DNA of 64,000 bases, taken from positions 2,844 to 66,843 of the forward strand of contig JANMZS010000175.1 of the NCBI GenBank assembly GCA_031383535.1, read 5' to 3'. The position numbers were made by a program, and so were the translations under genes. This document shows, piece after piece, positions 3,751 to 63,367 of this stretch (position 1 is its first letter; the number at the start of each line of letters is the position of its first letter). The stretch is from Flavobacterium sp. GTDB taxonomy: Bacteria > Bacteroidota > Bacteroidia > Flavobacteriales > Flavobacteriaceae. The notes beneath the pieces are model-generated. The model did not search any database, was not told the origin of the DNA, and worked only from the letters and a program-made list of their open reading frames with translations.

Positions 3751-3862
3751 GAAACGCCCACAACAGTCGTCATTTACAAATAAAAAAATAGCTATAGGCG
3801 TTCCATCTGCCTGTCGGCAGACAGGTCTTCCAATAAAAAACAAATATTATAAACAGATGAAA
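3751..3862 (+). repeat. 112-bp direct repeat, copy 1 (leader plus ATGAAA start of the GT4 gene)
   Basis: Ungapped match to 35088-35199: last 70 bp differ at 1 base, first 42 bp match at 29 positions. Contains the palindrome tctgcctgtcggcagacagg. Confidence 0.95.
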
Positions 3863-5047
3863 CCATCAATACTATTTGTTACCACTTCTTCAAATTGGCC
3901 TTTAACCGACGGTAAAAGACAACGTACCTGGTTTTTGATAGAAGCATTATCAGAAAAATTCAAGGTAGATTTACTTTTAATTGGGTATTCTAATGAAAGG
4001 GAACAAATAGAAAAGAGTACTAAATCAATAAATAAGTTATTCTTTTTTGATTTAGCAAATTCAAATTTACCAGAAGTAGGCTATCCCAATTTTTTGATTT
4101 CGAAAAAACAGAAAGGCAAAAACAATTTTATATTAATTCAAATCCAAAATCTTTTTTTAGAACTCAATACTAAGTATCAGTATTCCTTTGTATTTAGTCG
4201 CTATTTATGGCCACTTTTGATATTGCCTTTACCAAAAGAAATTAAGGTTGTTTGTGATATAGACGATGTTTATTTTGAAGCACAAAAATCTAGAATTCAA
4301 AAAGAAACAAATTTTTTGCGTAAACTAAAACTTCAAACGTTATTTATTTTAGGTTCATTAAAGGTAAAAAAACTATTGACTCGTATTGATGTTCCAATTA
4401 TAGTAAAAGAATCAGATCGTTCATTTTACGGTTTAAAAAAAGCAGTTTGTTTGCCCAACATTCCTTTTGGATATTACATTGATAAAGAAATGTCTTCTTA
4501 TAAAAATCCTATTGACAGCCCTTTAAATTCAATTAATTTTGGATTTATAGGAAAACTAAGTTATAGACCAAATCAACAGGGTTTAATTAATTTTATAAAT
4601 AGCGTATGGAATCCTTTAATGCAAAATAAATCAAATGCAAGGTTAGTTATTGCAGGAAGCGGTGAGATTTCAAAAATTTTACAAACCACCATCGATGCTT
4701 CCAAAAATATAGATTTATTAGGGTTTGTTGAAACTCCCGAATTTTTTTGGAATCAAGTCTCTGTATTAGTAGTTCCAATTGCAGAAGGAGGCGGTTCGAA
4801 CATAAAAGTGGCAGAAGCTTTTATTTATGGAAAAATGGTTATTGCACATCCGTTTGCCTCAAGAGGATATGAAAGTTTTATAGACTCGGGCTTTTTAATT
4901 TTGCCAAAAGATAATCAAGAATGGATTAGGAGTCTTACTGCTATCGAAATTCCTTCTGCACCACAAAGCCAATTTTTATCTACAAAAGCAAAGCAACTTT
5001 TTGATTTAGAGAATTGGAATCAAATTTTACTTAACACGGTCTCCTAA
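3857..5047 (+). CDS. Glycosyltransferase, GT4-like (GT-B fold)
   Basis: DGKRQRT, GFIGKLSYRPN, VVPIAEGGGSNIKVAEA motifs. Start moved from 3749 to ATG 3857 because the extra 36 codons are the repeat leader shared with rfbA. Confidence 0.8.
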   Translation: MKPSILFVTTSSNWPLTDGKRQRTWFLIEALSEKFKVDLLLIGYSNEREQIEKSTKSINKLFFFDLANSNLPEVGYPNFLISKKQKGKNNFILIQIQNLFLELNTKYQYSFVFSRYLWPLLILPLPKEIKVVCDIDDVYFEAQKSRIQKETNFLRKLKLQTLFILGSLKVKKLLTRIDVPIIVKESDRSFYGLKKAVCLPNIPFGYYIDKEMSSYKNPIDSPLNSINFGFIGKLSYRPNQQGLINFINSVWNPLMQNKSNARLVIAGSGEISKILQTTIDASKNIDLLGFVETPEFFWNQVSVLVVPIAEGGGSNIKVAEAFIYGKMVIAHPFASRGYESFIDSGFLILPKDNQEWIRSLTAIEIPSAPQSQFLSTKAKQLFDLENWNQILLNTVS

Positions 5048-5056
5048 TAACTTTTC

Positions 5057-5914
5057 ATGTCCTATTTTAGTATTATTATTCCATCCTATAACAGAGCTCA
5101 TATTATCGATAGGGCTATACAAGGAGTTTTAAATCAAACTTTTCAGGATTTTGAAATTATCATCGTTGATGATGGGTCAATTGATAATACACAAGTAATA
5201 ATTAAAAAATACTCAAACGATTTAAGAGTTAATTACATTTATCAAATTAATGCGGGAGTTTGTGTTGCTCGAAATACTGGAGCTAAACAAGCTAATGGTG
5301 AGTACTTGATTTTTTTGGATAGTGACGATATGGTTGAAACATCATGGCTTCAAGATTTTTATGATTTAGCCCAACAAAATAACGATTTGTTGTTTTGTAG
5401 TATGAAAGTAGTGAAACAAGATTTAAGTTCCTATTTTGTTTCTGCTTTGAATCCCTTTAAGAAAATTGATTTAATGGGAAATAGTGCTGCTGGCTCGTGG
5501 GCAATAAAAAAAGATGTTTTTTTGAGAGTTGGGATGTTTGATGAAAATATAAAATTCGGAGAAAATGTTGAATTAAGATTTAGATTAAATCAAGAAGAAT
5601 TAAATATAGGTGTTATTGATAAATGTAATTTTATTTATTATGAATCACTTAATGGCGGGAGTAGAAATTTGAAAAACAAAATTGATTCTAATCTCTATAT
5701 CATAAACAAACATAATATGTTGTTTAAACGACGACCTCGTTTATTGCGATTTTATTATCAAAATATTGCGGTGGCTTATGCCAAACTAGGAATTTGGGGC
5801 AATGCACGAATTTATTTTTGGAAAGCCTATAAAGTTGATGTTTCAAAAATTAAAACTTTGTTACGATTTTTAATTACTTTATTTCCATTTATGGCAAAAA
5901 AAATATGGAAATAA
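5057..5914 (+). CDS. Glycosyltransferase family 2
   Basis: SIIIPSYNRA, VDDGSID, ARNTG, FLDSDD. Confidence 0.9.
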   Translation: MSYFSIIIPSYNRAHIIDRAIQGVLNQTFQDFEIIIVDDGSIDNTQVIIKKYSNDLRVNYIYQINAGVCVARNTGAKQANGEYLIFLDSDDMVETSWLQDFYDLAQQNNDLLFCSMKVVKQDLSSYFVSALNPFKKIDLMGNSAAGSWAIKKDVFLRVGMFDENIKFGENVELRFRLNQEELNIGVIDKCNFIYYESLNGGSRNLKNKIDSNLYIINKHNMLFKRRPRLLRFYYQNIAVAYAKLGIWGNARIYFWKAYKVDVSKIKTLLRFLITLFPFMAKKIWK

Positions 5915-6831
5915 AAGAAAAAGTTATTTACGCCGCTTTTGTAATGACTTATAAAAGACCTGCGATTTTATTGGAAACGATTAATAAATTGTTTGACCAA
6001 ACATTCCCTCCAGAAGTAGTTTTGATTATTGACAATGATTCGGAAAAAAGTGCTTTAAATATTGTAAATAATTTTCCAAAAAATAAAGTTCAATATTATG
6101 CTGTGGGTTATAATTCAGGGCCTGCCGGAGGAGCTTATTTTGGAATGAAGTTGCTTTTTGAACAAAATTGGGACTGGGTGTTGTGGACTGATGATGACGA
6201 TCCGCCTGTATTTGAAGACTCAATACAAAACATTTTTGGTTTATTAAATCAATATAAAGGAAAAAAGCCAATAGGAATGATTGGTGCTGTAGGTTCCAAT
6301 TTTAATAAACTTAAGGGTTCGATTACAAGAATTAGCAGTGGTAAGATAGAGGATATTCAGATTGTCGATTACATAGGGGGAAGTATGTCGCCTATTGTAA
6401 ATAAACAAGTATTTAACAAATCGATTTTGCCAAACCCTGATTTGTTCTTTGGTTTTGAAGATTTATCATTTTGCTTACAAGTGAAAAAAGCAGGATTTGA
6501 AATTGTAATTTTAGGTAGTGAAATGTTAAGATGGAGAGAGAAGTTTAATCGTCTAAACATTTCTACAACCTCGCATAATTTACCAGATATATCCACTTTA
6601 TGGCGCCAATATTATTCGGTTAGAAGTCTTTTTACCATCTTATATAGACAAGAAAAAGTAATAATAGGATTGTTTTATTTTATTTTTAAAACAGTTTTTA
6701 AATCTTTTTTGGGATACAAAAAGGGCTTAAGTTATGGTAACAAATATGCTAAAATTCATTTATTAGGACTATATCATGGAATGATTGGGAAAAATGGATG
6801 TGTTCTTCTACCTGAGAAAAAATATAGTTAA
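5905..6831 (+). CDS. Glycosyltransferase family 2 (rhamnosyltransferase-like)
   Basis: TYKRP, IDND, NSGPAGG, WTDDDD, FFGFEDL. Confidence 0.8.
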   Translation: MEIKEKVIYAAFVMTYKRPAILLETINKLFDQTFPPEVVLIIDNDSEKSALNIVNNFPKNKVQYYAVGYNSGPAGGAYFGMKLLFEQNWDWVLWTDDDDPPVFEDSIQNIFGLLNQYKGKKPIGMIGAVGSNFNKLKGSITRISSGKIEDIQIVDYIGGSMSPIVNKQVFNKSILPNPDLFFGFEDLSFCLQVKKAGFEIVILGSEMLRWREKFNRLNISTTSHNLPDISTLWRQYYSVRSLFTILYRQEKVIIGLFYFIFKTVFKSFLGYKKGLSYGNKYAKIHLLGLYHGMIGKNGCVLLPEKKYS

Positions 6832-14824: not shown

Positions 14825-14825
14825 T

Positions 14826-17966: not shown

Positions 17967-19415
17967 ATGTTTTTCAACTCCATAAACTTCGCTATTTTTT
18001 TGCCTATAGTTTTTATACTGTATTGGTTTATATCCAACAAAAGCTTAAAACTTCAAAATATTCTATTGTTAATTTCGAGCTATTTCTTCTATGCTTGTTG
18101 GGATTGGCGGTTCTTGTTTCTTTTAATTTTCTCAACCCTATTAGATTATTATACGGGAATCAAAATGTCGGATGCAAAAAATCAAGCGTCGAAAAAATTT
18201 TGGTTTTGGCTAAGCATATCAGTAAACCTTGGTTTTCTAGGTGTTTTTAAATATTATAACTTTTTTGCGGCCTCCTTTGCTGATGCTATTGCTAACTTTG
18301 GGATGCAAGTCAACCCTTGGACTTTAAAAGTAATCCTTCCTGTTGGGATTTCATTTTATACTTTTCACGGATTGTCTTATGTGATTGATATATATAAAGA
18401 CCGTATCAAGGCGGAAAAGAATTTTATAGATTACTCCGTTTTTGTTAGCTTTTTCCCTTTGCTTGTAGCTGGTCCAATTGAACGTGCCACGCATTTATTA
18501 CCTCAGATTCAGAAAAAAAGAGAATTTGATTTTGCAAATGCTGTCGATGGTTTGAAACAAATTTTGTGGGGATTGTTTAAAAAAGTTGTTATTGCTGATA
18601 ATTGTGCCAAATTTGCCAACATCATTTTTGATAATTATACGGACTATTCTGGAAGTACATTAGCCTTAGGTGCGGTATTTTTTGCTTTTCAAATATACGG
18701 AGATTTTTCGGGCTATTCTGATATTGCATTGGGAACGGCAAGGCTTTTTGGAATCGATTTATTACGAAATTTTGCCTTTCCTTATTTTTCTCGTGATATA
18801 GCAGAATTTTGGAGACGTTGGCATATTTCGCTTTCTACCTGGTTTCGGGATTATTTATACATTCCGTTGGGAGGTAGTAAAGGAGGAATGTGGATGAAAA
18901 TTAGAAACACTTTTATTATATTTTTAGTCAGTGGTTTTTGGCATGGTGCCAATTGGACTTTTATTGTGTGGGGTTTTCTGAATGCTTTATACATTATGCC
19001 TTCGATTATTTTTAATACCCATAGAAATAATTTAGATAGTGTAGCACAAGGGAAGATGTTCCCTACCTTAAAAGAATTATTTTCAATAATTGTTACTTTT
19101 TCATTAACGGTTTTAGCTTGGATATTTTTTAGGTCTAATACTATTGATCAGGCAGTACATTATATTGCTAGAATTTTTTCGAAATCTTTTTTTAGTTTTC
19201 CTGCTATTAAAATAGACATGTATGACAAGCCTATTTTTCTGCTAGTTTTTTTATTTATTTTTATAGAGTGGCTAGGAAGAGAACAACAATATGCTATTGC
19301 TAATTTATTTTCAAAAAAGCCTAAAGTTTTTCGCTGGGCGTTTTATTATTTGGTAATCATCCTTATTTTTATTTTTGCGGGTTCTAATCAGCAGTTTATC
19401 TATTTTCAGTTTTAA
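17967..19415 (+). CDS. MBOAT O-acyltransferase, copy 3
   Basis: Same motifs; core near-identical to copies 1 and 2, tail similar to copy 4. Confidence 0.95.
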   Translation: MFFNSINFAIFLPIVFILYWFISNKSLKLQNILLLISSYFFYACWDWRFLFLLIFSTLLDYYTGIKMSDAKNQASKKFWFWLSISVNLGFLGVFKYYNFFAASFADAIANFGMQVNPWTLKVILPVGISFYTFHGLSYVIDIYKDRIKAEKNFIDYSVFVSFFPLLVAGPIERATHLLPQIQKKREFDFANAVDGLKQILWGLFKKVVIADNCAKFANIIFDNYTDYSGSTLALGAVFFAFQIYGDFSGYSDIALGTARLFGIDLLRNFAFPYFSRDIAEFWRRWHISLSTWFRDYLYIPLGGSKGGMWMKIRNTFIIFLVSGFWHGANWTFIVWGFLNALYIMPSIIFNTHRNNLDSVAQGKMFPTLKELFSIIVTFSLTVLAWIFFRSNTIDQAVHYIARIFSKSFFSFPAIKIDMYDKPIFLLVFLFIFIEWLGREQQYAIANLFSKKPKVFRWAFYYLVIILIFIFAGSNQQFIYFQF

Positions 19416-20389
19416 GATTGAAAACATTCATCAAAAAAATATTATTTTTTTTATTCCCAATAGTTTTATTATCCTATTTTCTCGATGTTTTTATTTCAAA
19501 TAATCTTAAAAAATCGAATCAATTTGCAAAAAAAGAATTTAGTACTTGGAATGCTATTTTTGAAGGTAAAATCAATTCAGACTTTTTGATTTATGGTAAC
19601 TCCAGAGCTTGGGTGCATTTCAATGCTACTATGATGACTGATAGTTTGTTTGTGCCAACGTATAATTTAGGAATAAACGGACATGGATTTTGGTTGCAAT
19701 ATTTTAGACACTCTTTGTTATTGATAAAAAATCCTAAGCCTAAAATAATTATTGTTGCAATTGATGAGTTTTGTTTAGAAAAGAGAAAAGATTTATATAA
19801 TTCCGAACAGTTTTTACCTTATATGCTGTGGAATGCAGCAATTAAAAAGACGACAAACAGCTATGAAGGGTTTGTTTCTATGGATTTTGAACTACCGTTA
19901 ATTAGGTATTATGGAAAAACAGAAGCCTTAGAAACAGCATTTTGTTCTTTTTTTGGAAATTTAAATAATCCAGTCCAGAGAGTTAGGGGATATCAAGGTC
20001 AAATAAGAATCTGGAATAAAGACCTAAAAAAAGCTAAATCAACTATTAAGAAGTACGAAGTTAAAGTAGATTTACCAACTTTAGTTTTATTTGAAAAATT
20101 CATTGTTGAATGTAAATCTCAGAATATTAAATTGATTTTTGTCAATGCACCTGAATATATTGAGGGGCAAAAATTTGTAAGAAACAGAGCCGAAGTTCTA
20201 GCTATTTATACTAAGTTGAGTAAGCAATATCGTATTCCACTTTATGATTATTCGAATGATACCATTTCTTTTCAAAAAAAATATTTTTATAATTCTGTTC
20301 ACATGAACAAAACGGGAGCAGACTTATTTACAACTAAACTTATTGATACAATTAAGCATGATAAAGTCATGCAAAGTATTTTGAACTAA
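19263..20389 (+). repeat. 1.13-kb diverged direct repeat, copy 1 (MBOAT tail plus SGNH gene)
   Basis: Colinear and equal in length to 24643-25769; both SGNH ORFs are 972 nt. Confidence 0.8.
19418..20389 (+). CDS. SGNH/DltD-like partner of MBOAT 3 (TTG start)
   Basis: YGNSRAW, YNLGING, NSVHMN; paralog of 24798. Confidence 0.65.
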   Translation: MKTFIKKILFFLFPIVLLSYFLDVFISNNLKKSNQFAKKEFSTWNAIFEGKINSDFLIYGNSRAWVHFNATMMTDSLFVPTYNLGINGHGFWLQYFRHSLLLIKNPKPKIIIVAIDEFCLEKRKDLYNSEQFLPYMLWNAAIKKTTNSYEGFVSMDFELPLIRYYGKTEALETAFCSFFGNLNNPVQRVRGYQGQIRIWNKDLKKAKSTIKKYEVKVDLPTLVLFEKFIVECKSQNIKLIFVNAPEYIEGQKFVRNRAEVLAIYTKLSKQYRIPLYDYSNDTISFQKKYFYNSVHMNKTGADLFTTKLIDTIKHDKVMQSILN

Positions 20390-23340: not shown

Positions 23341-24795
23341 ATGATATTTAACTCATTTTCTTTTTTAGTATTTTTTAGTATTTTTTTTATTGTTTATTGG
23401 TTTATATGCAATAGAAATTTAAAACTTCAAAACGGATTACTTCTTGTTGGTAGTTATGTCTTTTATGCTTGGGCTGATTGGCGATTTTTATTTTTTCTAA
23501 TAGGCGTTTCGGCGTTAAATTATTTTTTAGGAATAGCTATTGAAAATCAAACCTCAGAAAAAACCAAAAAACTATTGCTTTATATAGGTTTGTTACAAGG
23601 AATAGGTTGTTTAGCCTTTTTTAAATATTATAACTTCTTTATTGTTTCAATTAATGATGTTTTTCATTCTTTGAATGTGAATTTAAATTTAAAAACGCTT
23701 AGTATCATTGTTCCATTAGGAATTAGTTTTTTTACCTTTAGAACGATAAGTTATATTTTAGATGTTGATAAAGGAAAAATTGAGGCAACCAAGGATTGGA
23801 TTGTTTTTTTTAATTATGTTTCCTTTTTTCCTTCGGTATTATCAGGTCCTATCGATAAAGCAAAAACTTTTGTTCCTCAGTTAGAAAAGAAAAGGGTTTA
23901 TGATTTTAATCAATCTGCTGATGGATTTCGCCAGATATTGTGGGGATTATTCAAGAAAGTGGTCGTTGCCGATAATTGTGCTATACTAACCAATTCGATA
24001 TTTGAAGACTATCATAGCTTGCCAGCGAGCTCTTTATTATTAGGAGCATTTTTATATGCGATTCAGATTTATGCTGATTTTTCAGGTTATTCTGATATGG
24101 CAATTGGATTTTCACGCCTTCTAGGTTTTACTATTACTAAGAATTTTGATTTTCCTTTTTTTAGCCAAAACATTGCCGAATTTTGGAGAAAGTGGCATAT
24201 TTCCTTAACTTCTTGGCTTACGGAATATGTATTTACTCCCTTGAGTATTTTTTTTAGAGATTATGTCAAATTGGGATTAATTGGAGCAATTGTAATCAAT
24301 TTTACAATTTGTGGAATTTGGCATGGAGCGAATTGGACGTATGTACTTTTCGGGTTTTTACACGGAATTTATTTTATACCTCTTATACTCAAAGGAACGA
24401 TGAATAAGAAGAAGAAAATAGCAAAAAACCAAGTGCTTCCTTCCTTTAAAGAATTTATAAATATAGTAAGCACTTTCACATTAGTCATGTTGACTATGGT
24501 TATTTTTAGAAGTGAATCTATCGAAAAGGCTTTTGAGTATTATCAAGGCTTATTTTCGACTTCACTTTTTTCGATTCCAATGGTGCATCTAAAGAATAAC
24601 TTTTTGGGAATCACTTTGCTTTTCATATTTATACTGTTTTGCATTGAATGGTTAGGGCGTGATGAGCAATATGGAATTGCCAATTTGTTTGCCCAAAAAC
24701 CACGAGTTTACAGATGGATTTTCTATTATTTAATTGTATTAGTCATATTTGTTTTTGCAGCTTCAAACCAACAATTTATTTATTTTCAGTTTTAG
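23341..24795 (+). CDS. MBOAT O-acyltransferase, copy 4 (divergent)
   Basis: PLGISFFTF, SGPI, YADFSGYSD, EFWRKWHISL, IWHGANW. Confidence 0.95.
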   Translation: MIFNSFSFLVFFSIFFIVYWFICNRNLKLQNGLLLVGSYVFYAWADWRFLFFLIGVSALNYFLGIAIENQTSEKTKKLLLYIGLLQGIGCLAFFKYYNFFIVSINDVFHSLNVNLNLKTLSIIVPLGISFFTFRTISYILDVDKGKIEATKDWIVFFNYVSFFPSVLSGPIDKAKTFVPQLEKKRVYDFNQSADGFRQILWGLFKKVVVADNCAILTNSIFEDYHSLPASSLLLGAFLYAIQIYADFSGYSDMAIGFSRLLGFTITKNFDFPFFSQNIAEFWRKWHISLTSWLTEYVFTPLSIFFRDYVKLGLIGAIVINFTICGIWHGANWTYVLFGFLHGIYFIPLILKGTMNKKKKIAKNQVLPSFKEFINIVSTFTLVMLTMVIFRSESIEKAFEYYQGLFSTSLFSIPMVHLKNNFLGITLLFIFILFCIEWLGRDEQYGIANLFAQKPRVYRWIFYYLIVLVIFVFAASNQQFIYFQF

Positions 24796-25769
24796 TTATG
24801 AGAAAAGATGTGAAATATTTTTTGTTTTTTTTGGTGCCAATTATGCTCTTTTCGTATGGTCTTGATGTGCTAATTTCAACTAATCTTAAAAAATCAAATC
24901 AATTTGCCGAAAAAGAATACAGTACTTGGAATGCTATTTTTGAAGGAAAAATAAATTCAGATTTGCTAATTTATGGAGCTTCAAGAGCTTGGGTGCAATT
25001 CAATTCAACTATGATTACCGATAGTTTGCATATTCCTACTTATAATCTAGGGATTGATGGACATTATTTTCAGTTGCAATATTTTAGACATAAAATGTTG
25101 ATGAAAAAAAACAAAAAGCCTAAAGTTATTATTATAGCTATCGATATGTTTTCATTAGAAAAAAGAAAGGATTTATACAATTTAGAGCAATTTTTACCCT
25201 ATATGCTTTGGAATAAAGATATTAAGACGGCAACTAGCGGTTATAAAGGCTTCACTTCCATTGATTATGAAATACCATTAATTCGATATTATGGAAGAAC
25301 AAAAGCTATAGAGACGGCATTTCGCTTTGTTTCTGGTCATTTGAGTAATCCTGTTTGCAGGGTTAAGGGGTATCAAGCACGAGATGAATCTTGGAATTCA
25401 GATTTTGATAAAGCTAAGCTTACTATGAAAGAACAAGAGATTAAACCAGATAAATCAATTATTATGCTCTTTGAAAGATTTATTACCGAATGTAACTCTC
25501 AAAATATAAAATTGATTTTTGTGAATGCACCTGAGTATAGTGAGGGTCAAAAATTCATAAAAAATAGAGGCGAAGTTTTAGCTATTTATACTAAGTTTAG
25601 TAAGCAATATCATATTCCGTTTTATGATTATTCAAATGATGCTATTTCGTATAAAAAAAAATATTTTTATAACTCAATACACATGAACAAAATGGGAGCT
25701 GAGTTATTTACGGCTAAACTGATTGACACGCTAAAACAATCTAAGATAATAAAAGAGTTGAGTCATTAA
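24643..25769 (+). repeat. 1.13-kb diverged direct repeat, copy 2
   Basis: Colinear with 19263-20389. Confidence 0.8.
24798..25769 (+). CDS. SGNH/DltD-like partner of MBOAT 4
   Basis: YGASRAW, NSIHMN. Start at ATG 24798 gives the same length as paralog 19418. Confidence 0.65.
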   Translation: MRKDVKYFLFFLVPIMLFSYGLDVLISTNLKKSNQFAEKEYSTWNAIFEGKINSDLLIYGASRAWVQFNSTMITDSLHIPTYNLGIDGHYFQLQYFRHKMLMKKNKKPKVIIIAIDMFSLEKRKDLYNLEQFLPYMLWNKDIKTATSGYKGFTSIDYEIPLIRYYGRTKAIETAFRFVSGHLSNPVCRVKGYQARDESWNSDFDKAKLTMKEQEIKPDKSIIMLFERFITECNSQNIKLIFVNAPEYSEGQKFIKNRGEVLAIYTKFSKQYHIPFYDYSNDAISYKKKYFYNSIHMNKMGAELFTAKLIDTLKQSKIIKELSH

Positions 25770-35087: not shown

Positions 35088-35199
35088 GAAACGCCCAAGA
35101 CAATTATCATTAACACACAAGAATATGATTATAGGCGTTCCATCTGCCTGTCGGCAGACAGGTCTTCCAATAAATAACAAATATTATAAACAGATGAAA
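35088..35199 (+). repeat. 112-bp direct repeat, copy 2 (leader plus ATGAAA of rfbA)
   Basis: Matches 3751-3862 at an offset of 31,337 bp. Confidence 0.95.
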
Positions 35200-46474: not shown

Positions 46475-46550
46475 ATGACAAATCCTAAAGTATCCATTGT
46501 TATCCCCCTGTTACAAACTTGCTAAATACTTAGATGAAGTATTACAGTAA
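46475..46550 (+). pseudogene. GT2 5' stub 1
   Basis: Reads MTNPKVSIVIP, then after a +1 frameshift in a C5 run CYKLAKYLDEVLQ*. Homologous to the start of the GT2 at 50403. Confidence 0.85.
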
Positions 46551-46660: not shown

Positions 46661-47851
46661 GTGCAAAAATTAGTCGCCCAATTTTATGAAAAATACGCTC
46701 TGGTACAAACCCAGCAAGTGCGAGATTTTATCCATACTATAGATTGGAATAACCGATTTATTGGAATAAAAGGAAGTCGTGGCGTAGGCAAAACTACGCT
46801 ATTGTTGCAGTACATTCGTTTGAATTTTGAGCCTAATAAAAGTGTTTTGTATGTTAGTTTGGATCATTTGTATTTTCTCGAAAACACGCTTTATGATTTA
46901 GTAAACGATTTTTATAAAAAAGGAGGGTTGTTTATTGCCATCGATGAGGTTCATAAATATCCTAATTGGGCTATCGAAATTAAAAATATTTATGACGATA
47001 TGCCTCATCTGAGGTTGGTTTTTACCAGTTCGTCCTTACTGCATATCCAACAAGCAAAAGCTGATTTGAGTAGGCGTGTAGTGATGTATACTATGCCAGG
47101 CTTGTCTTTTAGAGAATTTATTCAGTTTGAAACCCAAATCAAATTAGATAGTTATTCGCTCAAAGATATTATCGACAATCACATCGCTATCAGCATGGCT
47201 ATTACACAAAAAATAAAACCTTTGCAGTATTTTGAGGATTACTTGGATTATGGCTATTATCCCTTTTACATCGAAAACAAAAAATCATTTCATCAAAAAT
47301 TGAGCGAAGTGATTCTCACGGTTTTAGAAGTTGATATTCCACAATATGCTTCCATTCCAGTTTCGAATAGTGTTTTGTTAAAAAAATTATTGGCGGTAAT
47401 TAGTAATTCAGTTCCTTTTAAGCCTAATATGAACGCTATTAGTGAGCGAACCGGGATAAGTCTCAACACCATGAAAAATTATTTAAAATTGTTGAATGAC
47501 GCTCAGCTTCTGCAACTTTTGTTTGTAGAAGACAAAGGGATTAATAGTTTAGGAAAACCAGAAAAAATTTATTTAAACAACTCTAATTTGATGTATAACT
47601 TGGGTAACGATGCAAATAAGGGGAACATAAGAGAAACCTTTTTTTTGAACCAAGTACGGTACAAGTATGCAGTTTTTGCCTCTAAAACAGTAGATTTTAA
47701 AGTCGATGGAATGCATGAATTTGAATTAGGAGGCAGAAACAAAAAACAGGAACAAATTGCAGCATTGCAAAATGCTTTTATAGTAAAAGACGATGTTGAA
47801 ATAGGATCCGATGTAACGATTCCTTTATGGTTGTTTGGGTTTTTATATTAA
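46661..47851 (+). CDS. AAA+ ATPase, COG1373/AAA_14-DUF4143 type (GTG start)
   Basis: Walker A GSRGVGKT, Walker B IDEVHK, GYYP, C-terminal DF..FELGG. Confidence 0.85.
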   Translation: MQKLVAQFYEKYALVQTQQVRDFIHTIDWNNRFIGIKGSRGVGKTTLLLQYIRLNFEPNKSVLYVSLDHLYFLENTLYDLVNDFYKKGGLFIAIDEVHKYPNWAIEIKNIYDDMPHLRLVFTSSSLLHIQQAKADLSRRVVMYTMPGLSFREFIQFETQIKLDSYSLKDIIDNHIAISMAITQKIKPLQYFEDYLDYGYYPFYIENKKSFHQKLSEVILTVLEVDIPQYASIPVSNSVLLKKLLAVISNSVPFKPNMNAISERTGISLNTMKNYLKLLNDAQLLQLLFVEDKGINSLGKPEKIYLNNSNLMYNLGNDANKGNIRETFFLNQVRYKYAVFASKTVDFKVDGMHEFELGGRNKKQEQIAALQNAFIVKDDVEIGSDVTIPLWLFGFLY

Positions 47852-47896: not shown

Positions 47897-47929
47897 ATGA
47901 CAAATCCTTCAGTCTCTATCATCGTTCCA
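47897..47929 (+). pseudogene. GT2 5' stub 2
   Basis: atgacaaatccttcagtctctatcatcgttcca = MTNPSVSIIVP, homologous to stub 1 and to 50403; similarity stops abruptly. Confidence 0.75.
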
Positions 47930-48067
47930 TTTGTGAGGACATATTAAATACTATCTAAAAGGAATATTTGTAAAACTATCAATGTGTTACTATTTCAAAT
48001 AGTTTTAAATATGTTTAAAAAATATTGTTTATTAATGTTAAATTTAAAGTATGTTTAAAATTTTTTA

Positions 48068-48102: not shown

Positions 48103-49320
48103 ATGTCTTTTAAAATACCTAATCCTATTGTAAAAAGAGAAGACTACCTCAAGCGGGTTATTCCTTTTATAGGTAAGAACTTGATTAAGGTTTTTACGGG
48201 GCAACGCCGTGTAGGCAAAAGTTATTTATTATTTCAAATTATGGATTATTTGTTGGAGCAAGAGCGTCAAACTGCTATTGTTTATATCAATAAAGAGGAT
48301 ATTGCTTTCTCGGCAATTCAAACAGCACAAGATTTGCACGATTATGTTCTACAACAAAAGTCAAACACTACCAAAACCTACGTTTTTATAGATGAAATTC
48401 AAGACATAGAAAATTTTGAAACAGCACTGCGTTCTTTGTTACTTCATGAGGATATAGATTTGTATTGCACGGGGAGCAATGCCAAATTGTTGTCGGGTGA
48501 TATTGCGGGTTATTTGAGTGGGCGAGCCATCGAAATTGTGATTTATAGTTTGTCTTATCCCGAGTTTTTAGTTTTTCATTCCTTAGAAGATAGTGTCCAA
48601 ACGCTGGAGCTCTATCTCCAATACGGAGGACTTCCTTATTTGAAAAATCTTGTATTAGAAGAAGTTGTTGTCTATGAATATCTAAAAAATATTTACAATA
48701 CCATTGTGTATCGAGACATTATCAATCGGTTTTCAATTCGCAATGTTTCGTTTTTAGAACAACTGGTTTTATTTTTGGCCAGCAACATTGGCAGTCTTTT
48801 TTCGGCCAAAAAAATTAGTGATTTTTTAAAGTCACAACGTATCAATATCGCTTCAAATCAGGTGCAAACGTACAGCGACCATTTGGTCAATGCTTTTTTG
48901 ATACACCGAGTTAGCAGATACGATTTGGTGGGAAAACGTATTTTTGAAACAGGAGAAAAATATTATTTTGAGAATCTAGGCATTCGAAATGCATTGTGGG
49001 GTTATCGTCTAGAAGATCGGGGGAAAATTATGGAGAATGTGGTGTATAATCATTTGCTTTTTAGAGGCTATCAAGTACATGTGGGTAATTTAGGGTCTCT
49101 AGAAATTGATTTTGTTGCCCAGCGTGCTGGCGAAAAGGTATATGTGCAAGTAGCATTGTCTATCAATGAGGCAAAAACAATGGAACGAGAATTTGGAAAT
49201 TTAAAGAAGATTAAAGATAATTTTCCGAAAATGGTTATCACTCTTGATGCCTTTCAAGGCAATACCAATGAGGGAATATTAGCAATAGATTTAAGAAGTT
49301 TTCTTTTATCTAAAATATAG
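48103..49320 (+). CDS. AAA+ ATPase, COG1373/AAA_14-DUF4143 type
   Basis: Walker A GQRRVGKS, Walker B IDEIQ, TGSNA, GGLP, KYYFENLG, EIDFVA...YVQV (PD-(D/E)xK-like). Confidence 0.9.
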   Translation: MSFKIPNPIVKREDYLKRVIPFIGKNLIKVFTGQRRVGKSYLLFQIMDYLLEQERQTAIVYINKEDIAFSAIQTAQDLHDYVLQQKSNTTKTYVFIDEIQDIENFETALRSLLLHEDIDLYCTGSNAKLLSGDIAGYLSGRAIEIVIYSLSYPEFLVFHSLEDSVQTLELYLQYGGLPYLKNLVLEEVVVYEYLKNIYNTIVYRDIINRFSIRNVSFLEQLVLFLASNIGSLFSAKKISDFLKSQRINIASNQVQTYSDHLVNAFLIHRVSRYDLVGKRIFETGEKYYFENLGIRNALWGYRLEDRGKIMENVVYNHLLFRGYQVHVGNLGSLEIDFVAQRAGEKVYVQVALSINEAKTMEREFGNLKKIKDNFPKMVITLDAFQGNTNEGILAIDLRSFLLSKI

Positions 49321-49348
49321 AAAAAGTAGCACAATAATAGTTTTAAAC

Positions 49349-49471
49349 ATGAATAATACGCCAGTCTCCATTATCGTTCCCTGCTACAACCTCGCTCAAT
49401 ACTTGGACGAAGCTTTGTAGTCTATTTATAACCAAGCCTACACCGATTGGGAATGTATTATTGTGGATGAT
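49349..49471 (+). pseudogene. GT2 5' stub 3
   Basis: MNNTPVSIIVPCYNLAQYLDEAL*SIYNQAYTDWECIIVDD. 41 codons colinear with 50403-50525; TAG replaces CAG. Confidence 0.9.
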
Positions 49472-49554
49472 GTAAATTATAAATCAAGTAGCTCAAAGTA
49501 TTTATATCAAAAATAGAGCTGAAAATGACGGCAATAAATTAAAAACCATACTAA

Positions 49555-50391
49555 ATGACAAATTTAAAACTATTTGAAAACCAACAAATTCGTTCCGATT
49601 GGAACGAAGAGGAGCAAGAGTGGTATTTTGCGGTGGTAGATGTTGTAGCCGTTTTAACAGGCAGTAGTGATCCAAAAGACTATTGGTACAGGATGAAAAA
49701 GCGTGAAAAAGTTTCAGGGTTTGAGTTATCGACAATTTGTCGACAACTGAAATTAGAGTCAAGCGATGGTAAAAAGTATGCAACCGATTGTGCTACAAAA
49801 CAAGGATTGTTGCGAATTATCCAATCTATTCCTTCACCAAAAGCAGAACCTTTCAAACAATGGTTAGCACACGTTGGAGCGGAAAGAATAGCCGAAATAG
49901 AAAACCCAGAGTTAGCACAAGAACGCATTAGAGCTACCTATAAGGCTAAAGGTTACAGTGATGAATGGATAGAAAAACGAATTCGTGGGATTTTAGTTCG
50001 TGATGAACTGACTAATGAATGGAAAAAAAGAGGAGTAAAAGAAGGAAAAGAGTATTCTATTTTAACCGCAGAAATAAGCAAAGCAACATTTGGAATTATT
50101 CCTAGTGATTATAAAAAACTAAAAGGATTAACAAAATCATCTGACAATCTTCGAGATCATATGACTGACTTGGAACTTATCTTTACTATGCTTGGAGAAG
50201 CATCAACAACTGAAATAGCTAAAAACAAAAATGCAAAAGGTTTTATAGAGAATCATAAAGCTGCCAAAGCTGGCGGAGGCGTTGCGGGTAAAGCACGTAA
50301 GGACTTAGAGCAAAAGTCGGGTAATAAAATTGTAAGTAATCAAAATTTTAAGGAACTTTCTGAAAATTTAAACAAGAAAAAATTAGAATAA
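49555..50391 (+). CDS. BRO-N domain protein (phage antirepressor-like family)
   Basis: WYFAVVDVV, LKLESSDGK, IIQSIPSPKAEPFKQWLA, KGYSDEWI, NLRDHMT. Confidence 0.8.
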   Translation: MTNLKLFENQQIRSDWNEEEQEWYFAVVDVVAVLTGSSDPKDYWYRMKKREKVSGFELSTICRQLKLESSDGKKYATDCATKQGLLRIIQSIPSPKAEPFKQWLAHVGAERIAEIENPELAQERIRATYKAKGYSDEWIEKRIRGILVRDELTNEWKKRGVKEGKEYSILTAEISKATFGIIPSDYKKLKGLTKSSDNLRDHMTDLELIFTMLGEASTTEIAKNKNAKGFIENHKAAKAGGGVAGKARKDLEQKSGNKIVSNQNFKELSENLNKKKLE

Positions 50392-50402: not shown

Positions 50403-51287
50403 ATGAATCATCCTAAAGCCTCCATTATCGTTCCCTGCTACAACCTCGCTCTATACTTGAACGAAGCCTTGCAGTCTATTGATGACCAAACCTACCCCCA
50501 TTGGGAATGTATCATTGTGGATGATGGAAGTCAGGATAATACTGCGGAAGTTTCTAAAAAATGGGAAGCCAAAGATTCTCGGTTTATCTATTTGTATAAA
50601 GAAAACGGAGGTGTAAGTAATGCTCGAAATGTAGGGATTGACAAAGCTAAATATGAATTTATCTTGACATTAGATGCCGATGATAAATACGAAGCTACCT
50701 TTCTTGAAAAAGCAATGAAGGTCTTGTTAGCCCATGACGAATTGGGTATCGTGAGCAGTTGGGGGCAGTATTTTGTAGCCGATAAATTATTTCAGATTTA
50801 TAGAATGACAGGAAAGTCAACAGTAGATTTTTTATTTTATAATGATGCAGTTGGCACTTCGTTATTCCGAAAAAAATGTTGGGAGCAAGTGGGTGGTTAT
50901 GACGAAAATTCAAAAAACGGCTATGAAGACTGGGAGTTTTACCTGAGAGTGTGTGCGGTAGGTTGGAAGGTACATATTATCGAAGAAGTTCTCTTTTATT
51001 ACCGACAGCATGTTGTTTCTAGGCGCAAAGAAATGAATCAGAAGGAAAATGAAAATAAAAAGTATATTTTTATGAAAAATAAACAAATATATTTTGAACA
51101 TTATGAAACCTTCGTCGATCGTTATTTGTTAAGTTGTAATAAAGAAAAAGAAGAAAACAATAAATATGCAAACACGATTGATTATAAATTAGGCACTGCG
51201 ATTTTGAAACCATTACGAAGTGTAAAATGGTTTTTTTTGAATTTATTAACGAATAAGAAAACCAAAAATTACAACCTTTTTTCATGA
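50403..51287 (+). CDS. Glycosyltransferase family 2 (intact)
   Basis: SIIVPCYN, VDDGSQD, NARNVG, LDADD, EDWEFY. Confidence 0.92.
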   Translation: MNHPKASIIVPCYNLALYLNEALQSIDDQTYPHWECIIVDDGSQDNTAEVSKKWEAKDSRFIYLYKENGGVSNARNVGIDKAKYEFILTLDADDKYEATFLEKAMKVLLAHDELGIVSSWGQYFVADKLFQIYRMTGKSTVDFLFYNDAVGTSLFRKKCWEQVGGYDENSKNGYEDWEFYLRVCAVGWKVHIIEEVLFYYRQHVVSRRKEMNQKENENKKYIFMKNKQIYFEHYETFVDRYLLSCNKEKEENNKYANTIDYKLGTAILKPLRSVKWFFLNLLTNKKTKNYNLFS

Positions 51288-53016: not shown

Positions 53017-54261
53017 TTGAAAGACATTATCCTCAAAGCCGAAAACATATCCAAACAATACCGCCTCGGACAGGTAGGAACAGGCACGTTGAGCCACGAC
53101 TTTAATCGTTTGTGGCACGAAATACGCGGTAAAGAAAATCCCTATCTTAAAATTGGCGATACTAATGACCGAAGTACTAAAGGTACTAGCGACTATGTCT
53201 GGGCATTACAAGATATCAATTTTGAGGTGGAAAGAGGCGAAGTACTTGGGATTATAGGTAAAAACGGTGCGGGAAAATCGACACTCTTAAAGATATTGTC
53301 TAAAGTTGCCGCTCCCACAACAGGAATTATAAAATCGCGTGGTCGCATATCTTCTTTACTCGAAGTAGGTACCGGTTTTAATGGTGAAATGACTGGGCGT
53401 GAAAATATTTATTTAAACGGAGCCATTCTAGGCATGACCAAAAAAGAAATTACTTCTAAGCTAGACGAAATAATCGATTTTTCAGGTTGTGAGCGTTATA
53501 TAGACACACCCGTAAAACGCTACAGCAGCGGAATGTATGTGCGTTTGGCTTTTGCAGTAGCCGCATTTCTGGAACCCGATATTTTAATTATCGATGAAGT
53601 TCTCGCTGTGGGCGATGCCGAGTTTCAGAAAAAAGCCATTGGCAAAATGCAGGATATTTCTCGTGAAGGAGGAAGAACGGTTTTGTTTGTGAGCCATAAC
53701 CTTACTGCAATACAAAAATTATGTAACACAGGAATTCTTTTGGAAAAGGGGAAAATAGTGACATCCGGAAAAATAGATAATGTTATTGAAACTTATTGTC
53801 AAAATGATTTTGAAAGTTTTGAAATCTTTCCAAATGATGAAAATGAAATGTACTTAAAAAATATAAAAGCATATTCTAGTGACATAAACACATCTGTTAT
53901 TACTGGAAAAAATGCTTTTTTTGAATTCCAAATTGAATCAAAAATAAATGCATCAAATGTAGTTTTAGGATTTGGTTTTAATGATAATCTTGAGAATAGA
54001 ATTGCAACACCATTTTCATTACATATTGATAAAAAATATGAAATAAAAACTGGAGAGAACAAAATAATTTGTGAAATCCCTAATTTTCCTTTAAAACCTG
54101 GTGCATACATGATTGAAGTATATATTGGCTCTAAAGAAAAAGACTATGATTATTATGATAAGGGATTGAAATTTTTAATTGAAGCGATTGATATACAAAA
54201 TATAAAATTTATACCAGACTCATCACAAGGTCACCTAATCCTAAATCAAATTTGGAAATAA
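53017..54261 (+). CDS. wzt: ABC polysaccharide exporter ATPase with C-terminal Wzt_C-like domain (TTG start)
   Basis: GKNGAGKST, YSSGMYVRLAF, IIDEVLAVGD, FVSH. Confidence 0.93.
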   Translation: MKDIILKAENISKQYRLGQVGTGTLSHDFNRLWHEIRGKENPYLKIGDTNDRSTKGTSDYVWALQDINFEVERGEVLGIIGKNGAGKSTLLKILSKVAAPTTGIIKSRGRISSLLEVGTGFNGEMTGRENIYLNGAILGMTKKEITSKLDEIIDFSGCERYIDTPVKRYSSGMYVRLAFAVAAFLEPDILIIDEVLAVGDAEFQKKAIGKMQDISREGGRTVLFVSHNLTAIQKLCNTGILLEKGKIVTSGKIDNVIETYCQNDFESFEIFPNDENEMYLKNIKAYSSDINTSVITGKNAFFEFQIESKINASNVVLGFGFNDNLENRIATPFSLHIDKKYEIKTGENKIICEIPNFPLKPGAYMIEVYIGSKEKDYDYYDKGLKFLIEAIDIQNIKFIPDSSQGHLILNQIWK

Positions 54262-55046: not shown

Positions 55047-55967
55047 ATGAAACAGCTTGCAATTATAATACCTGCATTTAAAAGTAAATTTTTAAGACAA
55101 ACTTTAGATTCTTTAGTGAATCAAACTAATCAAAATTTCAATTTATATATTGGTGATGACAATAGCCCGTTTAATTTAAAAGAAATTGTTGCTGAATATA
55201 ATGAAAAATTAGCTATAAAATATCACAAGTTTTCAAACAACATTGGTGGCAAAAATATTGTAAATCAATGGAATAGATGTATTGCATTAACAAAAGATGA
55301 AAAATGGATTTGGTTATTTTCCGATGATGACATCGCAGACGCTAACTGTGTTGAAACATTTTATGAAACTATTAAAATGGATTCTGAAAAATATGATGTT
55401 TATAGATTTAACACAAGAGTCATTGATGACTACAATAAAATAATTTGTGATAATGAAAGCCCTTTTGAAGAAAATTCTTTTGAAATGTGTCTTGATATTC
55501 TCCAACTAAAAAGAGGACATTGCATGCCTGATCACATTTTCAGTAAAAGAAAATATAATATATTAGGCGGTTTTGTATTTACAAATTATGCACAAGCTGC
55601 TGATTGGGCTACTTCTATAAATTTTGCAACTGAAAAAGGAATTTGCAGTATGAAAAATGCTAAGATAAACTGGAGATATGGTACTAGTAATATCAGCGGT
55701 AATGCTCATAAAGATAACCACGAAAAAGTTTTAGGTCATATTCAGTTTATAAATTGGGTGTTATCTCATTTTAAAAACAAGGTTGGTAAGAAGGATTTTG
55801 AAAAATTAAAACTTTATTCTAACACTAATTTAATTAAAATAATAAACATACACTATAAAGGTATTAGACTAAAAACAAGCTATCATGTTTTAAAAACTCT
55901 TATTAAGACAGATAATAATTTATTTAAAAATATTATTAATACATTTAGATTAATTAAATTAAAATAA
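55047..55967 (+). CDS. Glycosyltransferase family 2
   Basis: IIIPAFK, IGDDNS, WNRCI, FSDDD. Confidence 0.85.
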   Translation: MKQLAIIIPAFKSKFLRQTLDSLVNQTNQNFNLYIGDDNSPFNLKEIVAEYNEKLAIKYHKFSNNIGGKNIVNQWNRCIALTKDEKWIWLFSDDDIADANCVETFYETIKMDSEKYDVYRFNTRVIDDYNKIICDNESPFEENSFEMCLDILQLKRGHCMPDHIFSKRKYNILGGFVFTNYAQAADWATSINFATEKGICSMKNAKINWRYGTSNISGNAHKDNHEKVLGHIQFINWVLSHFKNKVGKKDFEKLKLYSNTNLIKIINIHYKGIRLKTSYHVLKTLIKTDNNLFKNIINTFRLIKLK

Positions 55968-56302
55968 TGTACCCCAAAATATCAATAGTAACTCCATCTT
56001 ATAATCAGGGTCAATATCTTGAGGATACTATTTTGTCTGTTTTGGGACAAGGGTATCCCAATTTAGAATACTTGATTTATGATGCTGCTAGTACGGATAA
56101 TTCAGTTGAGATATTAAAAACCATCGATTTCAAGAATAATTCTCCGAAAGTAATTTGTGTAGAAGCTGCAGAATATTCGCCCATTGGTACTGGTGAACGT
56201 AGAAACGAACTCATAGATTTTCTAGTAAAGAACAGTTATTACGAGTATGCTAACACTAATTTGAATGTTATAATGGTTAGAAAAGATTTTTGGTTTAAAT
56301 AA
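55967..56302 (+). pseudogene. In-frame chimera of a GT2 N-terminus (about 51 aa) and an FkbM-methyltransferase C-terminus
   Basis: KISIVTPSYNQGQYLEDTILSV...DAASTDNSVEILK followed by TIDFKNNSPKVICVE...NTNLNVI, which resembles an FkbM tail. Confidence 0.7.
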
Positions 56303-61502: not shown

Positions 61503-62708
61503 ATGAAATTTTTAATAATTGAGCAAGATTTACGAATTTCGGGAACCAGTCAAGGAATTATCTCCCGCTCATTTTTGGCAAAATTAAGAACAGCTTATCC
61601 TGACTCCATCATTGATGTTCATTATCTTAAACAATCCTCTAGTGAAGATCAATTAGGCTTATTGCCTGTAAATTTGATACAAGAGTATGTTTTGGATTTA
61701 AAAATTCCTTTTTTTACCAAATGGTTCAATACAATTTACTGGAGATTATTTCACGTGTCCTTAGCTAGTAATCATGTATATCAAGTTTACAGAGATTGTA
61801 TAGCTAAAATTGACTATCATCAATACGATCATATCTTTATACGAAGTGCAGGGTTGAATTGTGAAACTATTATAGGCGCCAAAGATTTGCCTGTCCTCAA
61901 GAAATCCATAATTACCTTCAATGAGCCTTATCCTTTGTTTTGGTGTACTGGTTCGTTAAGCCCTCTGACCTCTCTTGAACTCTTTAAACTGAAAGAAATG
62001 TTTGAAGTGATTTCTCAAGCTAAATCGTGTATGGCAACCGCATTATTAGCCCAAGATCTAGAATATGTTTATGGTTCTAGAAAAAAAATCTATCCAATGC
62101 CTCATCAATACGACCCAAGTGTTTTTGATTTGTCGGATGTAAGTGAATTGGTCAAAAAGAAGAAGAAAATCTTGATTTCTTACCATGGAGCGCTACAGTT
62201 TGGCAGAAACATAGAAATAGTTTTGGATACATATCTTGAATTGGTCGAAAGCAATTTGAAGTACAAAGAAAACACAGAATTTGTGATTCGAGTAAAAGGT
62301 GCCGATTTTAAAAAAATAGAATCAAAGTATGCTGATACGTCTAATATTACCGTTTTGTTCATTTCCAATTTTTCTAATTCTTGTAATGAACAAATGAACG
62401 AAGCCGATATCAATATCATTTTAGAAAACGGACCATTATATTGTAATATTTTGGTGGGTAAAGCCCCATTTTTAGCATCCATACCCAAACCGATTCTTAG
62501 TATTTCGCCCGAACGAAGCGAAATGCGAAACATTATACAAGACCCACAATACATCGCTAGTTGTACTGATAAAGCCGAAATTAAACAAAAACTCGAAAAT
62601 CTAATTGTCAATAGAATGAACTCGGACGAAGCAGTTTATCCTTTTGGGGATTATTTTAGTGATGCGAATTTTAAACTGAGATTAGATAAGATTTTGTTGG
62701 AAAAATGA
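61503..62708 (+). CDS. Probable GT-B fold glycosyltransferase
   Basis: 401-aa ORF in the GT cluster; ISYHGALQFGRN, DINIILEN, GKAPFL. Family is uncertain. Confidence 0.55.
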   Translation: MKFLIIEQDLRISGTSQGIISRSFLAKLRTAYPDSIIDVHYLKQSSSEDQLGLLPVNLIQEYVLDLKIPFFTKWFNTIYWRLFHVSLASNHVYQVYRDCIAKIDYHQYDHIFIRSAGLNCETIIGAKDLPVLKKSIITFNEPYPLFWCTGSLSPLTSLELFKLKEMFEVISQAKSCMATALLAQDLEYVYGSRKKIYPMPHQYDPSVFDLSDVSELVKKKKKILISYHGALQFGRNIEIVLDTYLELVESNLKYKENTEFVIRVKGADFKKIESKYADTSNITVLFISNFSNSCNEQMNEADINIILENGPLYCNILVGKAPFLASIPKPILSISPERSEMRNIIQDPQYIASCTDKAEIKQKLENLIVNRMNSDEAVYPFGDYFSDANFKLRLDKILLEK

Positions 62709-62782
62709 AAATTTAAAATTGAATTCAAATAATACAACTTTTGAAAAACGAGTTGCAAGTTAGATTCTTTGCTTACTTTTGT

Positions 62783-63217
62783 ATGAGAACGGTTAGTCAT
62801 AGAAAATTTATTGTCTAATAATTATACATCACAAGCCCGAAACAAGCTAATTGCCAGAGCGTTCAAGGAAGTGGGTATGATTGAACGATATGGTTCAGGG
62901 ATTCGAAGAATACTAAATATATGTGAACAATATGGGATTATTCAACCCAAAATCGAAGAAGTATTCAACTGTTTTCGAATTTTACTGTTCAAAGAAAAAC
63001 GCAACAGCACCGATGTCGTAGATAATGTCGTAGCTAATCGATTAGAAATAATATTGGACTTAATCAATAAAAAAAATACAATTTCTGCAAACCAAATAGC
63101 AAAACGATTGAATATAACGCACCGAACCGCACAAAGAGACCTCGGAAATTAAAAAAAATAAACAAACTAAAACGAATAGGTACTGAAAAAACGGGTTATT
63201 GGCAAATTTTGAAGTAA
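62783..63217 (+). pseudogene. Relic of an ATP-binding/RecG-C (HATPase_c_4) plus HTH transcriptional regulator
   Basis: Only the C-terminal part is left (RNKLIA..F...GMIERYGSGI, then HTH SANQIAKRLNITHRTAQRD). A 1-bp frameshift near 63145 precedes KLKKINKLKRIGTEKTGYWQILK*. A -7 box TACTTTTG lies at 62774-62781. Confidence 0.75.
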
Positions 63218-63223
63218 TTTAAA

Positions 63224-63367
63224 TACTGATAAAAAAAACAAAAATTCGCAATTTTAATCCCCAATAGAATGAGTTCTAATGAGCCAGTTTATCCGTTTGG
63301 AGATTATTTTAGTGATGCCAATTTTAAAGTGATGTTGGCTGAGGTGTTGGTTCAGTCTAAAAAGTAA
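63224..63367 (+). pseudogene. Second, diverged copy of the 3' end of the 61503 gene
   Basis: NRMSSNEPVYPFGDYFSDANFKVMLAEVLVQSKK* versus NRMNSDEAVYPFGDYFSDANFKLRLDKILLEK* at 62564-62708. Confidence 0.88.

Follow-up and report, generated by a model that had tools for sequence, protein, structure and literature searches.

The window, as we call the 64,000-nucleotide stretch of DNA analysed here (Flavobacterium sp., assembly GCA_031383535.1, contig JANMZS010000175.1), raises the question of how inserts bracketed by duplicated gene ends come to lie in a surface-polysaccharide locus in which no recombinase gene is recognizable. A preliminary description of this DNA listed five such cases, namely a 112-bp repeat around 31.3 kb, a 1.13-kb repeat around an FkbH module, three 5' fragments (stubs) of a GT2 glycosyltransferase gene, a GT2::FkbM fusion, and a duplicated 3' end around a RecG-C/HTH relic. 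It ascribed all of them to one general mechanism that needs no recombinase gene and uses conserved gene ends as homology anchors to add glycan-modifying modules. We found that all five features exist, but that they are of three different kinds. A single mechanism is plausible for the stubs, the fusion and the duplicated 3' end, and for these three the role of gene ends as anchors is supported by empty sites without a stub, by cassette-specific breakpoints and by shared junctions; the 112-bp and 1.1-kb repeats are outside its explanation. With a probability of roughly 60%, the stub-flanked inserts and the chimera are scars of recombination with DNA of related bacteria, in which homology on one side was combined with an illegitimate join on the other. 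The stub scars are old marks of recombination with foreign DNA and are found genome-wide; they are not a special route for building this locus, and the process mostly moves toxin-antitoxin, defence and nuclease genes.

The evidence is most complete at the start of one GT2 gene (Table 1). A GT2-like leader and a start codon mark each of the three stubs; every stub precedes one cargo gene with its own promoter, and the intact GT2 stands last. The three stubs of the preliminary description were thus recovered, and stub 3 is 84% identical to the intact GT2 5' end (50378-50529). The first two cargo genes both encode AAA_14/DUF4143 ATPases, which are unrelated to each other, and the third encodes a Bro-N protein; all three match PADLOC profiles of candidate single-gene defence families, the ATPases PDC-S01 and the Bro-N protein PDC-S13. 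Homologues of ATPase 2 occur at 89-91% amino acid identity in other Flavobacterium species. One homologue with 91% amino acid identity was also met in L078, a record titled as a metagenome-assembled genome of Lentimicrobium sp. and thus labelled as another order, which reflects either long-range transfer at a very recent date or an error of binning. Exact-protein look-ups returned no protein identical to FkbM or to the intact GT2 in any other strain, and a metagenome scan with GT2 returned just relatives at 50% identity or less.

The history of the site could be followed in related loci with GT2 orthologues at 83-85% protein (about 81% DNA) identity, together with L080 from another Flavobacterium (GT2 83% identical at the DNA level). 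Two of these loci hold neither cargo nor stub. In L178, the end of wzm is followed by gmd, fcl, GT2, the fucosyltransferase gene (FucT) and wzt, and in L177 FkbM is separated by 18 nt from GT2, which is followed by wzt. In L172, L173 and L174, which come from three samples, a stub of about 93 nt and ATPase 2 stand between FkbM and the pair GT2-wzt. L080 has a stub of 126 nt (stub A), Bro-N, a stub of about 93 nt (stub B), ATPase 2, GT2 and FucT, whereas the window has FkbM, stub 1, ATPase 1, stub 2, ATPase 2, stub 3 (126 nt), Bro-N and GT2. The position of stub 1 is exactly that of the native GT2 start in L177 and L172. Each cassette has a breakpoint of its own (about 75, 93 and 126 nt), and the same cargo has the same breakpoint in different genomes: both Bro-N junctions are common to L080 and the window, where the breakpoints of stub A and stub 3 coincide, and the junction between stub and ATPase 2 is common to L172 and L080. 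Because the junctions are shared, the breakpoints are cassette-specific and the order of the cassettes is not the same in L080 as in the window, it appears that the stubs come with the cargo, that insertion is not site-specific and that existing stubs can be hit again.

The cassettes are of unequal age. Compared with L080, the Bro-N open reading frame (ORF) is 96.4% identical with a third-position divergence of 5%, and the corresponding values are 84.5% and 33% for ATPase 2, 83.1% and 32% for GT2, and 82.6% and 37% for FucT. The tract of high identity (about 49548-50395 in the window, 434-1281 in L080) is almost exactly the Bro-N ORF, and identity on either side is about 70-86%. The scaffold of the array is therefore old, and recent exchange has involved just the Bro-N ORF. 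Ancient duplications had been named in the preliminary description as a finding that would count against it, and in part this is what we see, since the stub-cargo junctions are common to loci that are about 17-20% diverged. The 5' end of the window GT2 shows no difference in affinity, being 82% identical to stub B and 84% identical to the intact GT2 of L080.

A similar structure is found at a 3' end. The repeat around the RecG-C/HTH relic proved to be real, with 81% identity between 62583-62679 and 63236-63332, and one copy belongs to the intact 401-aa gene. The other copy, the 3' stub, has MSSNE...MLxxVL in common with the orthologue in G013, a genome of another species, and in this it is unlike the resident end. 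Its intact frame, its own stop codon and its resemblance to G013 make it look like the end of another allele and not like a decayed copy. The genomes G013, G103 and G082 have neither relic nor stub at this place, and the next biosynthetic gene comes straight after the 401-aa gene's orthologue.

The GT2::FkbM fusion was located in a short in-frame chimera. Its residues 2-51 are 86% identical to the N-terminus of a GT2 protein, and an FkbM-family methyltransferase retrieved in a large-database search matches residues 34-110 with its C-terminus at 69% identity. Because the two alignments overlap around ...EILK, the joint appears to lie at a short patch of similarity. The tail of the chimera had no Pfam hit and no match to the local FkbM genes. 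The same chimera, at 97% identity and in the same gene order, is present in a strain-level relative (ENA metagenome). The FkbM gene at 45540-46457 had also been considered as the supposed fusion and was rejected, as it is not a fusion. The chimera alone hints that biosynthetic blocks have been joined illegitimately as well. Every stub-flanked insert carries cargo of the selfish or defence type, and the stubs therefore give no evidence for the proposed addition of sugar-modifying modules by the same route; the chimeric junction at 55967-56302 is the single possible exception.

Table 1. Positions in the window of the duplicated gene ends, their cargo genes and the other repeats discussed in the text.
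Feature	Position	Strand	Remark
Leader-like dispersed repeat, copy 1	3751..3862	+	non-coding; ends in the ATG of a GT4 gene, true start 3857
MBOAT3 3' tail and partner gene (323 aa)	19246..20349	+	paralogue of 24620-25729
MBOAT4 3' tail and partner gene (351 aa)	24620..25729	+	74.9% identical to 19246-20349 over 1111 nt
Leader-like dispersed repeat, copy 2	35088..35199	+	non-coding; ends in the ATG of rmlA, true start 35194
GT2 5' stub 1 (MTNPKVSIVIP..., frameshifted)	46475..46548 (end approximate)	+	native GT2 5' end, 17 nt past the FkbM stop
Cargo 1, AAA_14/DUF4143 ATPase (ATPase 1)	46661..47851	+	own promoter-like region; PADLOC candidate PDC-S01, E 1.5e-28
GT2 5' stub 2 (MTNPSVSIIVPF), decayed	47897..47935 (end approximate)	+	
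Cargo 2, AAA_14/DUF4143 ATPase (ATPase 2)	48103..49320	+	PADLOC PDC-S01, E 2.8e-145
GT2 leader and 5' stub 3	49321..49475	+	stub 49350-49475, 41 codons, in-frame TAG
Cargo 3, Bro-N protein	49555..50391	+	PADLOC PDC-S13, E 1.4e-124
Intact GT2	50403..51287	+	5' end is the repeated anchor
GT2::FkbM chimera	55967..56302	+	in frame; about 50 GT2 5' codons and about 60 FkbM methyltransferase 3' codons
401-aa gene	61503..62708	+	without a Pfam match and conserved in related loci; intact copy of the 3' repeat formed by its last 41 codons (62583-62708)
Cargo relic, truncated RecG-C (HATPase_c_4)/HTH gene (113 aa)	62811..63152	+	
3' stub, probably from another allele of the 401-aa gene	63236..63367	+	43 in-frame codons, own stop

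Stub-flanked inserts are not restricted to the window. A self-comparison of the draft genome, which comprises 2.97 Mb in 250 contigs with a contamination of 3.8%, revealed about 18 of them on 14 contigs, one copy of the repeat being the end of a neighbouring gene and the other an intergenic stub. The repeats are the 5' or 3' end of the local gene itself, often with its terminator, and are different at each site. They are 36-157 nt long with copies 74-93% identical, and the inserts are single genes of 0.9-1.6 kb. No shared motif was evident across the junctions inspected by eye, and inverted-repeat ends were not seen, though the cassette ends were not specifically searched for them. One stub-flanked insert follows an rmlD-like gene on contig C112. 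Contig C80 (1-2900) has a two-stub array where a gene that we read as carB-like ends, the repeated 3' end including the terminator; the array carries an AAA_14 ATPase and a gene for a small membrane protein, and it has the same architecture at a housekeeping gene.

A custom, unbiased scan of 1,924 genes gave an estimate of the overall frequency. Direct repeats with a score of at least 20 flanked 34 genes (about 2%), compared to one in a permuted control. The window accounted for 2 of the 34, against about 1.1 expected, which is not a significant enrichment. The flanked genes were AAA_14/DUF4143, Bro-N, PIN, MNT/HepT, Fic, Abi_2, DUF559, YhcG/DUF1016, GIY-YIG, DUF4160 and HTH genes, and a few, as judged from the sequence alone, were surface or accessory genes (a leucine-rich-repeat protein, lipoproteins and a thioredoxin-like protein). 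Mismatches pooled over 19 repeat pairs were distributed over codon positions 1, 2 and 3 as 59/37/118, and so the copies had diverged largely while both were coding.

Repeats of this kind also occur beyond the genome. Of 57 Bacteroidota loci that contain an ATPase-2 homologue, 23 (about 40%) had flanking repeats, compared to a null rate of 0.7%, and within the genus 3 of 23 Bro-N loci were flanked likewise. About half of the 23 ATPase-2 repeats resemble, by eye and without a domain search, the ends of neighbouring genes for sugar synthesis (5' ends of GT2, GT4-like, wecB, wzt and Bac_transf genes and the 3' end of fcl), and others look like dispersed repeats. That repeat-flanked ATPase-2 homologues often lie at sugar-gene ends is a point in favour of the preliminary description. 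In L082 (Flavobacterium franklandianum), two copies of a wzt 5' end (LKDIILKAEN...) are placed 931 nt apart at 2924-3937, beside a homologue of ATPase 2, so that another species has a stub array at a different sugar gene. Our literature search retrieved nothing that directly matched gene-end duplications beside defence genes.

There is no sign of a recombinase near these structures. Neither a transposase nor an integrase was detected when about 63 ORFs of the window were scanned with Pfam, in agreement with the preliminary description. Whole-genome scans for three recombinase families detected 4 tyrosine recombinases, 3 DDE transposases and 1 serine recombinase, with zero matches on the contig of the window.

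We favour a model that combines homologous recombination on one side with an illegitimate join on the other. A donor fragment would carry the cargo, a leader and a copy of a conserved gene end. This gene end would pair with the resident gene and recombine homologously, and the other, non-homologous end of the donor would be joined illegitimately. In a packed operon, the sole harmless landing zone is probably the part of the resident gene that is replaced by the donor copy, which would act as a selective filter, and the resident's own gene end would thereby be left as a stub beside the cargo. Repeated events at the same gene end, or within an existing stub, would build an array. Once established, the structure of stub, cargo and gene could be passed on by ordinary double crossover, in which the stub would act as a short arm of homology. 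[quoted passage not shown]

Several points weigh against this model. The repeat pairs of the window itself lack an excess of third-position mismatches (10/4/3 for stub 3 and 6/4/8 for the 3' stub), and for these two pairs duplication in place followed by decay could still be the explanation. No donor-recipient pair was near enough to represent a fresh event, the nearest loci being about 80-85% identical, and consequently the illegitimate step and any microhomology at the stub junctions are not visible. [quoted passage not shown] Nevertheless, each of the rival explanations that we weighed is less well supported than the model of combined homologous and illegitimate recombination.

The rival that survives best regards the cassettes as self-perpetuating. 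The copies of a gene end would recombine and excise a circle made up of one copy and the cargo, and a single crossover would re-integrate it at any homologous gene end and regenerate the duplication, RecA taking the place of an integrase. The permuted order of the cassettes in the window and L080, the identical junctions at different positions of the array and the direct repeats of 36-157 nt that flank single genes genome-wide would all be expected from such a cycle. However, repeat partners that are short and 74-93% identical are poor substrates for RecA, neither a circle nor an excision junction was observed in an analysis of assembled sequences, and the origin of the first structure is left unexplained. 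The differences in order are explained equally by independent successive insertions, and we regard such a cycle as unlikely.

It is clearly less probable that the repeats are true target-site duplications of great length, produced by some machinery acting in trans that makes staggered cuts 36-160 nt apart, with copies that were identical at first and then drifted. Staggered cuts would give stubs of variable length, as observed, the diversity of the cargo points to a shared factor in trans, and the missing third-position excess in the window's own pairs fits with drift. However, the pooled codon bias of 59/37/118 indicates divergence under coding constraint, the 3' stub resembles the allele of another species, and shared element ends were not apparent at the junctions inspected by eye. 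We know of no prokaryotic element that produces duplications this long.

A site-specific recombinase encoded elsewhere, either integron-like or an integrase acting in trans, with attachment sites that overlap the gene ends, is slightly less probable again. Integrative elements do duplicate the 3' ends of genes, and the architecture of the array, with the newest cassette next to the gene, is integron-like. Such an enzyme is difficult to reconcile with breakpoints of about 75, 93 and 126 nt that change with the cassette and with target genes that differ at each site; a conserved motif was not evident at the inspected junctions, and the genome has just 4 tyrosine and 1 serine recombinase genes, none of them on a stub-bearing contig. 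Least probable of all is that the stubs are the remains of full tandem GT2 paralogues with deleted or overwritten bodies, or artefacts of a mixed-strain assembly, for although the 5' ends of the 11 or so intact GT2 genes of the locus are similar and the draft has 250 contigs and 3.8% contamination, the empty sites have one GT2 and zero stubs, the stub leaders match the GT2 leader, and the same arrays are present in independent assemblies (L080, and L172, L173 and L174 from three samples).

The 112-bp repeat is of a different kind. Its two window copies (3751-3862 and 35088-35199) are 87.5% identical, and both terminate in ATGAAA, the true starts of the GT4 gene (MKPSILFVTT...) and of rmlA. The family has at least nine copies genome-wide, two in the window and at least seven on other contigs (C134, C116, C210, C159, C157, C83 and C104), each directly 5' of an unrelated gene, whose start codon is supplied by the ATGAAA at the end of the element. 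The genes behind the other copies include those for a tyrosyl-tRNA synthetase-like protein, an LptB-like ABC ATPase and lipoproteins, as read by eye from the N-termini without a domain search. The copy on contig C134 is 83-85% identical to the window copies, which is only a little less than these are to one another. Inside the repeat lies a palindrome of 19-20 nt, CTGCCTGTCGGCAGACAGG, which has about 50 copies in the genome across several repeat families and looks like a nested insertion, because some members of the 112-nt family are without it. The element folds well (z = -3.3), and its outer stem has apparently compensatory changes (AACGCC/GGCGTT versus AACACC/GGTGTT); neither the window nor the element matched any Rfam family. 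The repeat is thus a dispersed, leader-like, non-coding element and not a duplicated gene end. Because it is dispersed before unrelated genes, the bracketing of a 31.3-kb insert is unsupported as a signature of insertion.

The repeat around the FkbH module is also real but does not enclose an insert between duplicated ends. It consists of the final 170 nt or so of an MBOAT gene and the whole of its partner gene, within an array of four paralogous MBOAT-plus-partner units, and amounts to paralogy at 75% identity. Three of the MBOAT paralogues were assigned by similarity to the single one scanned with Pfam. The MBOAT cores of units 1-3 are 80-95% identical up to about 19100-19200, and beyond this point each tail pairs with its own partner. 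In units 3 and 4, tail and partner are 72-86% identical and the cores just 50-65%. This is old mosaicism among paralogues, produced by gene conversion or unequal crossing-over, and not a recent end-flanked insert. In the tandem lpl paralogues of Staphylococcus aureus, the evolutionary unit has been described as the 3' part of one ORF plus the next ORF (PMC2568036). The likeness to our case is that the MBOAT 3' tail moves with its partner while the MBOAT cores are homogenised; the difference from the stub cases is that the lpl-like repeat is paralogue mosaicism without insertion of foreign cargo. The region 20421-25769 encodes FkbH, a methyltransferase, an acyl carrier protein (ACP, 23067-23309, PP-binding) and the divergent MBOAT with its partners, a set that suggests a route for acyl- or glyceryl-type decoration of the polysaccharide.

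The surroundings of these structures are those of a glycan locus. The window has about 30% G+C, belongs to a 69.9-kb contig and is filled almost without break by surface-polysaccharide genes on the plus strand. They include the intact GT2 genes, six GT4 genes, the four MBOAT-plus-partner units, FkbH, methyltransferase and ACP genes, as well as genes for a PglC-like protein, a formyltransferase, DegT, rmlA, CapD and Wza/Wzc. After these comes a locus of the ABC-transporter type, with wzm, gmd, fcl, FkbM, GT2, FucT and wzt in this order, followed by further transferases. On the flanks of the contig outside the window, the ORFs look like more glycan-synthesis genes when read by eye without a domain search, and a second Wzt-like ABC ATPase lies just upstream of the window (C109:555-1832), so that the contig may hold two ABC-type glycan export systems. 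The spacing of wzm and wzt is 9.5 kb here (42612-54261), whereas the two are adjacent in most genomes of the genus that were searched; between them lie a fucosylation module (gmd, fcl, GT2 and FucT) and the cargo, and L178 has the module without the cargo. A frameshift near 51560, outside a homopolymer tract, divides the alpha-1,3-fucosyltransferase gene (51284-52251) into two ORFs, and this is likely a pseudogene or a sequencing error; the L080 orthologue has no frameshift over the compared portion, the locus ending inside the gene. A DUF4160/DUF2442 pair, toxin-antitoxin-like, is found between FucT and wzt (52328-52916), where no flanking repeat was detected.

We tentatively suggest, with clearly less confidence than we have in the model for the window, that duplicated gene ends act as portable homology arms across Bacteroidota. 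Single-gene cassettes of the candidate defence and toxin-antitoxin kinds would then be mobile without a recombinase of their own, in RecA-driven, integron-like arrays stacked at the ends of conserved operon genes, often those of sugar synthesis. Our data offer a concrete and testable answer, for Bacteroidota, to the question of how small defence and toxin-antitoxin genes spread without mobility genes of their own. They are also a warning to annotators: the short "pseudogene" stubs of surface-sugar loci are traces of gene transfer in the past.

Among known systems, transposons and insertion sequences do not fit, as the window ORFs include no transposase and the repeats of 36-157 nt vary in length. 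Integrase-borne islands at the 3' ends of tRNA and protein genes resemble our inserts in that the insert lies between direct repeats of a gene end and leaves the gene intact; the inserts here are single genes of 0.9-1.6 kb without an integrase, occur at 5' ends too and have no common core sequence. With integron cassette arrays they share promoter-bearing single-gene cassettes that are stacked at one site, with variable occupancy and permuted order. Unlike integrons, they have no integrase on the contig, no attC/attI-like sites and no conserved junction motif detectable by eye, and the repeat is the target gene's own end with a breakpoint that differs per cassette.

A further comparison is with the homology-facilitated illegitimate recombination described for naturally transformable bacteria (de Vries & Wackernagel 2002 and Prudhomme et al. 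2002, cited in PMC5361080; also PMC3240628). It shares the one-sided homology and the illegitimate join, and the joint of the chimera at a patch of similarity would be in keeping with it. Laboratory events usually delete recipient DNA, whereas an apparent duplication is seen here; under the mechanism that we infer, this reflects a join within the stretch to which the donor's anchor is homologous.

The closest relatives are the displacement arrays, that is, C-terminal displacement in Rhs, orphan cdiA-CT/cdiI modules and the T6SS immunity-gene arrays of V. cholerae (PMC5361080). [quoted passage not shown] A shared anchor is present between stub 3 and GT2 (84%), between the 3' stub and the end of the 401-aa gene (81%) and in 19 pairs genome-wide, and unoccupied relatives without a remnant are known in L177, L178, G013, G103 and G082. 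The differences are that the displaced piece here is 36-160 nt from the 5' or 3' end of an ordinary biosynthetic or housekeeping gene, that the insert is an unrelated single gene (a candidate defence, toxin-antitoxin or nuclease gene) and not a toxin tip with its immunity gene, and that the sites are scattered over the genome. The pattern is therefore a variant of the known displacement arrays that is new in form.

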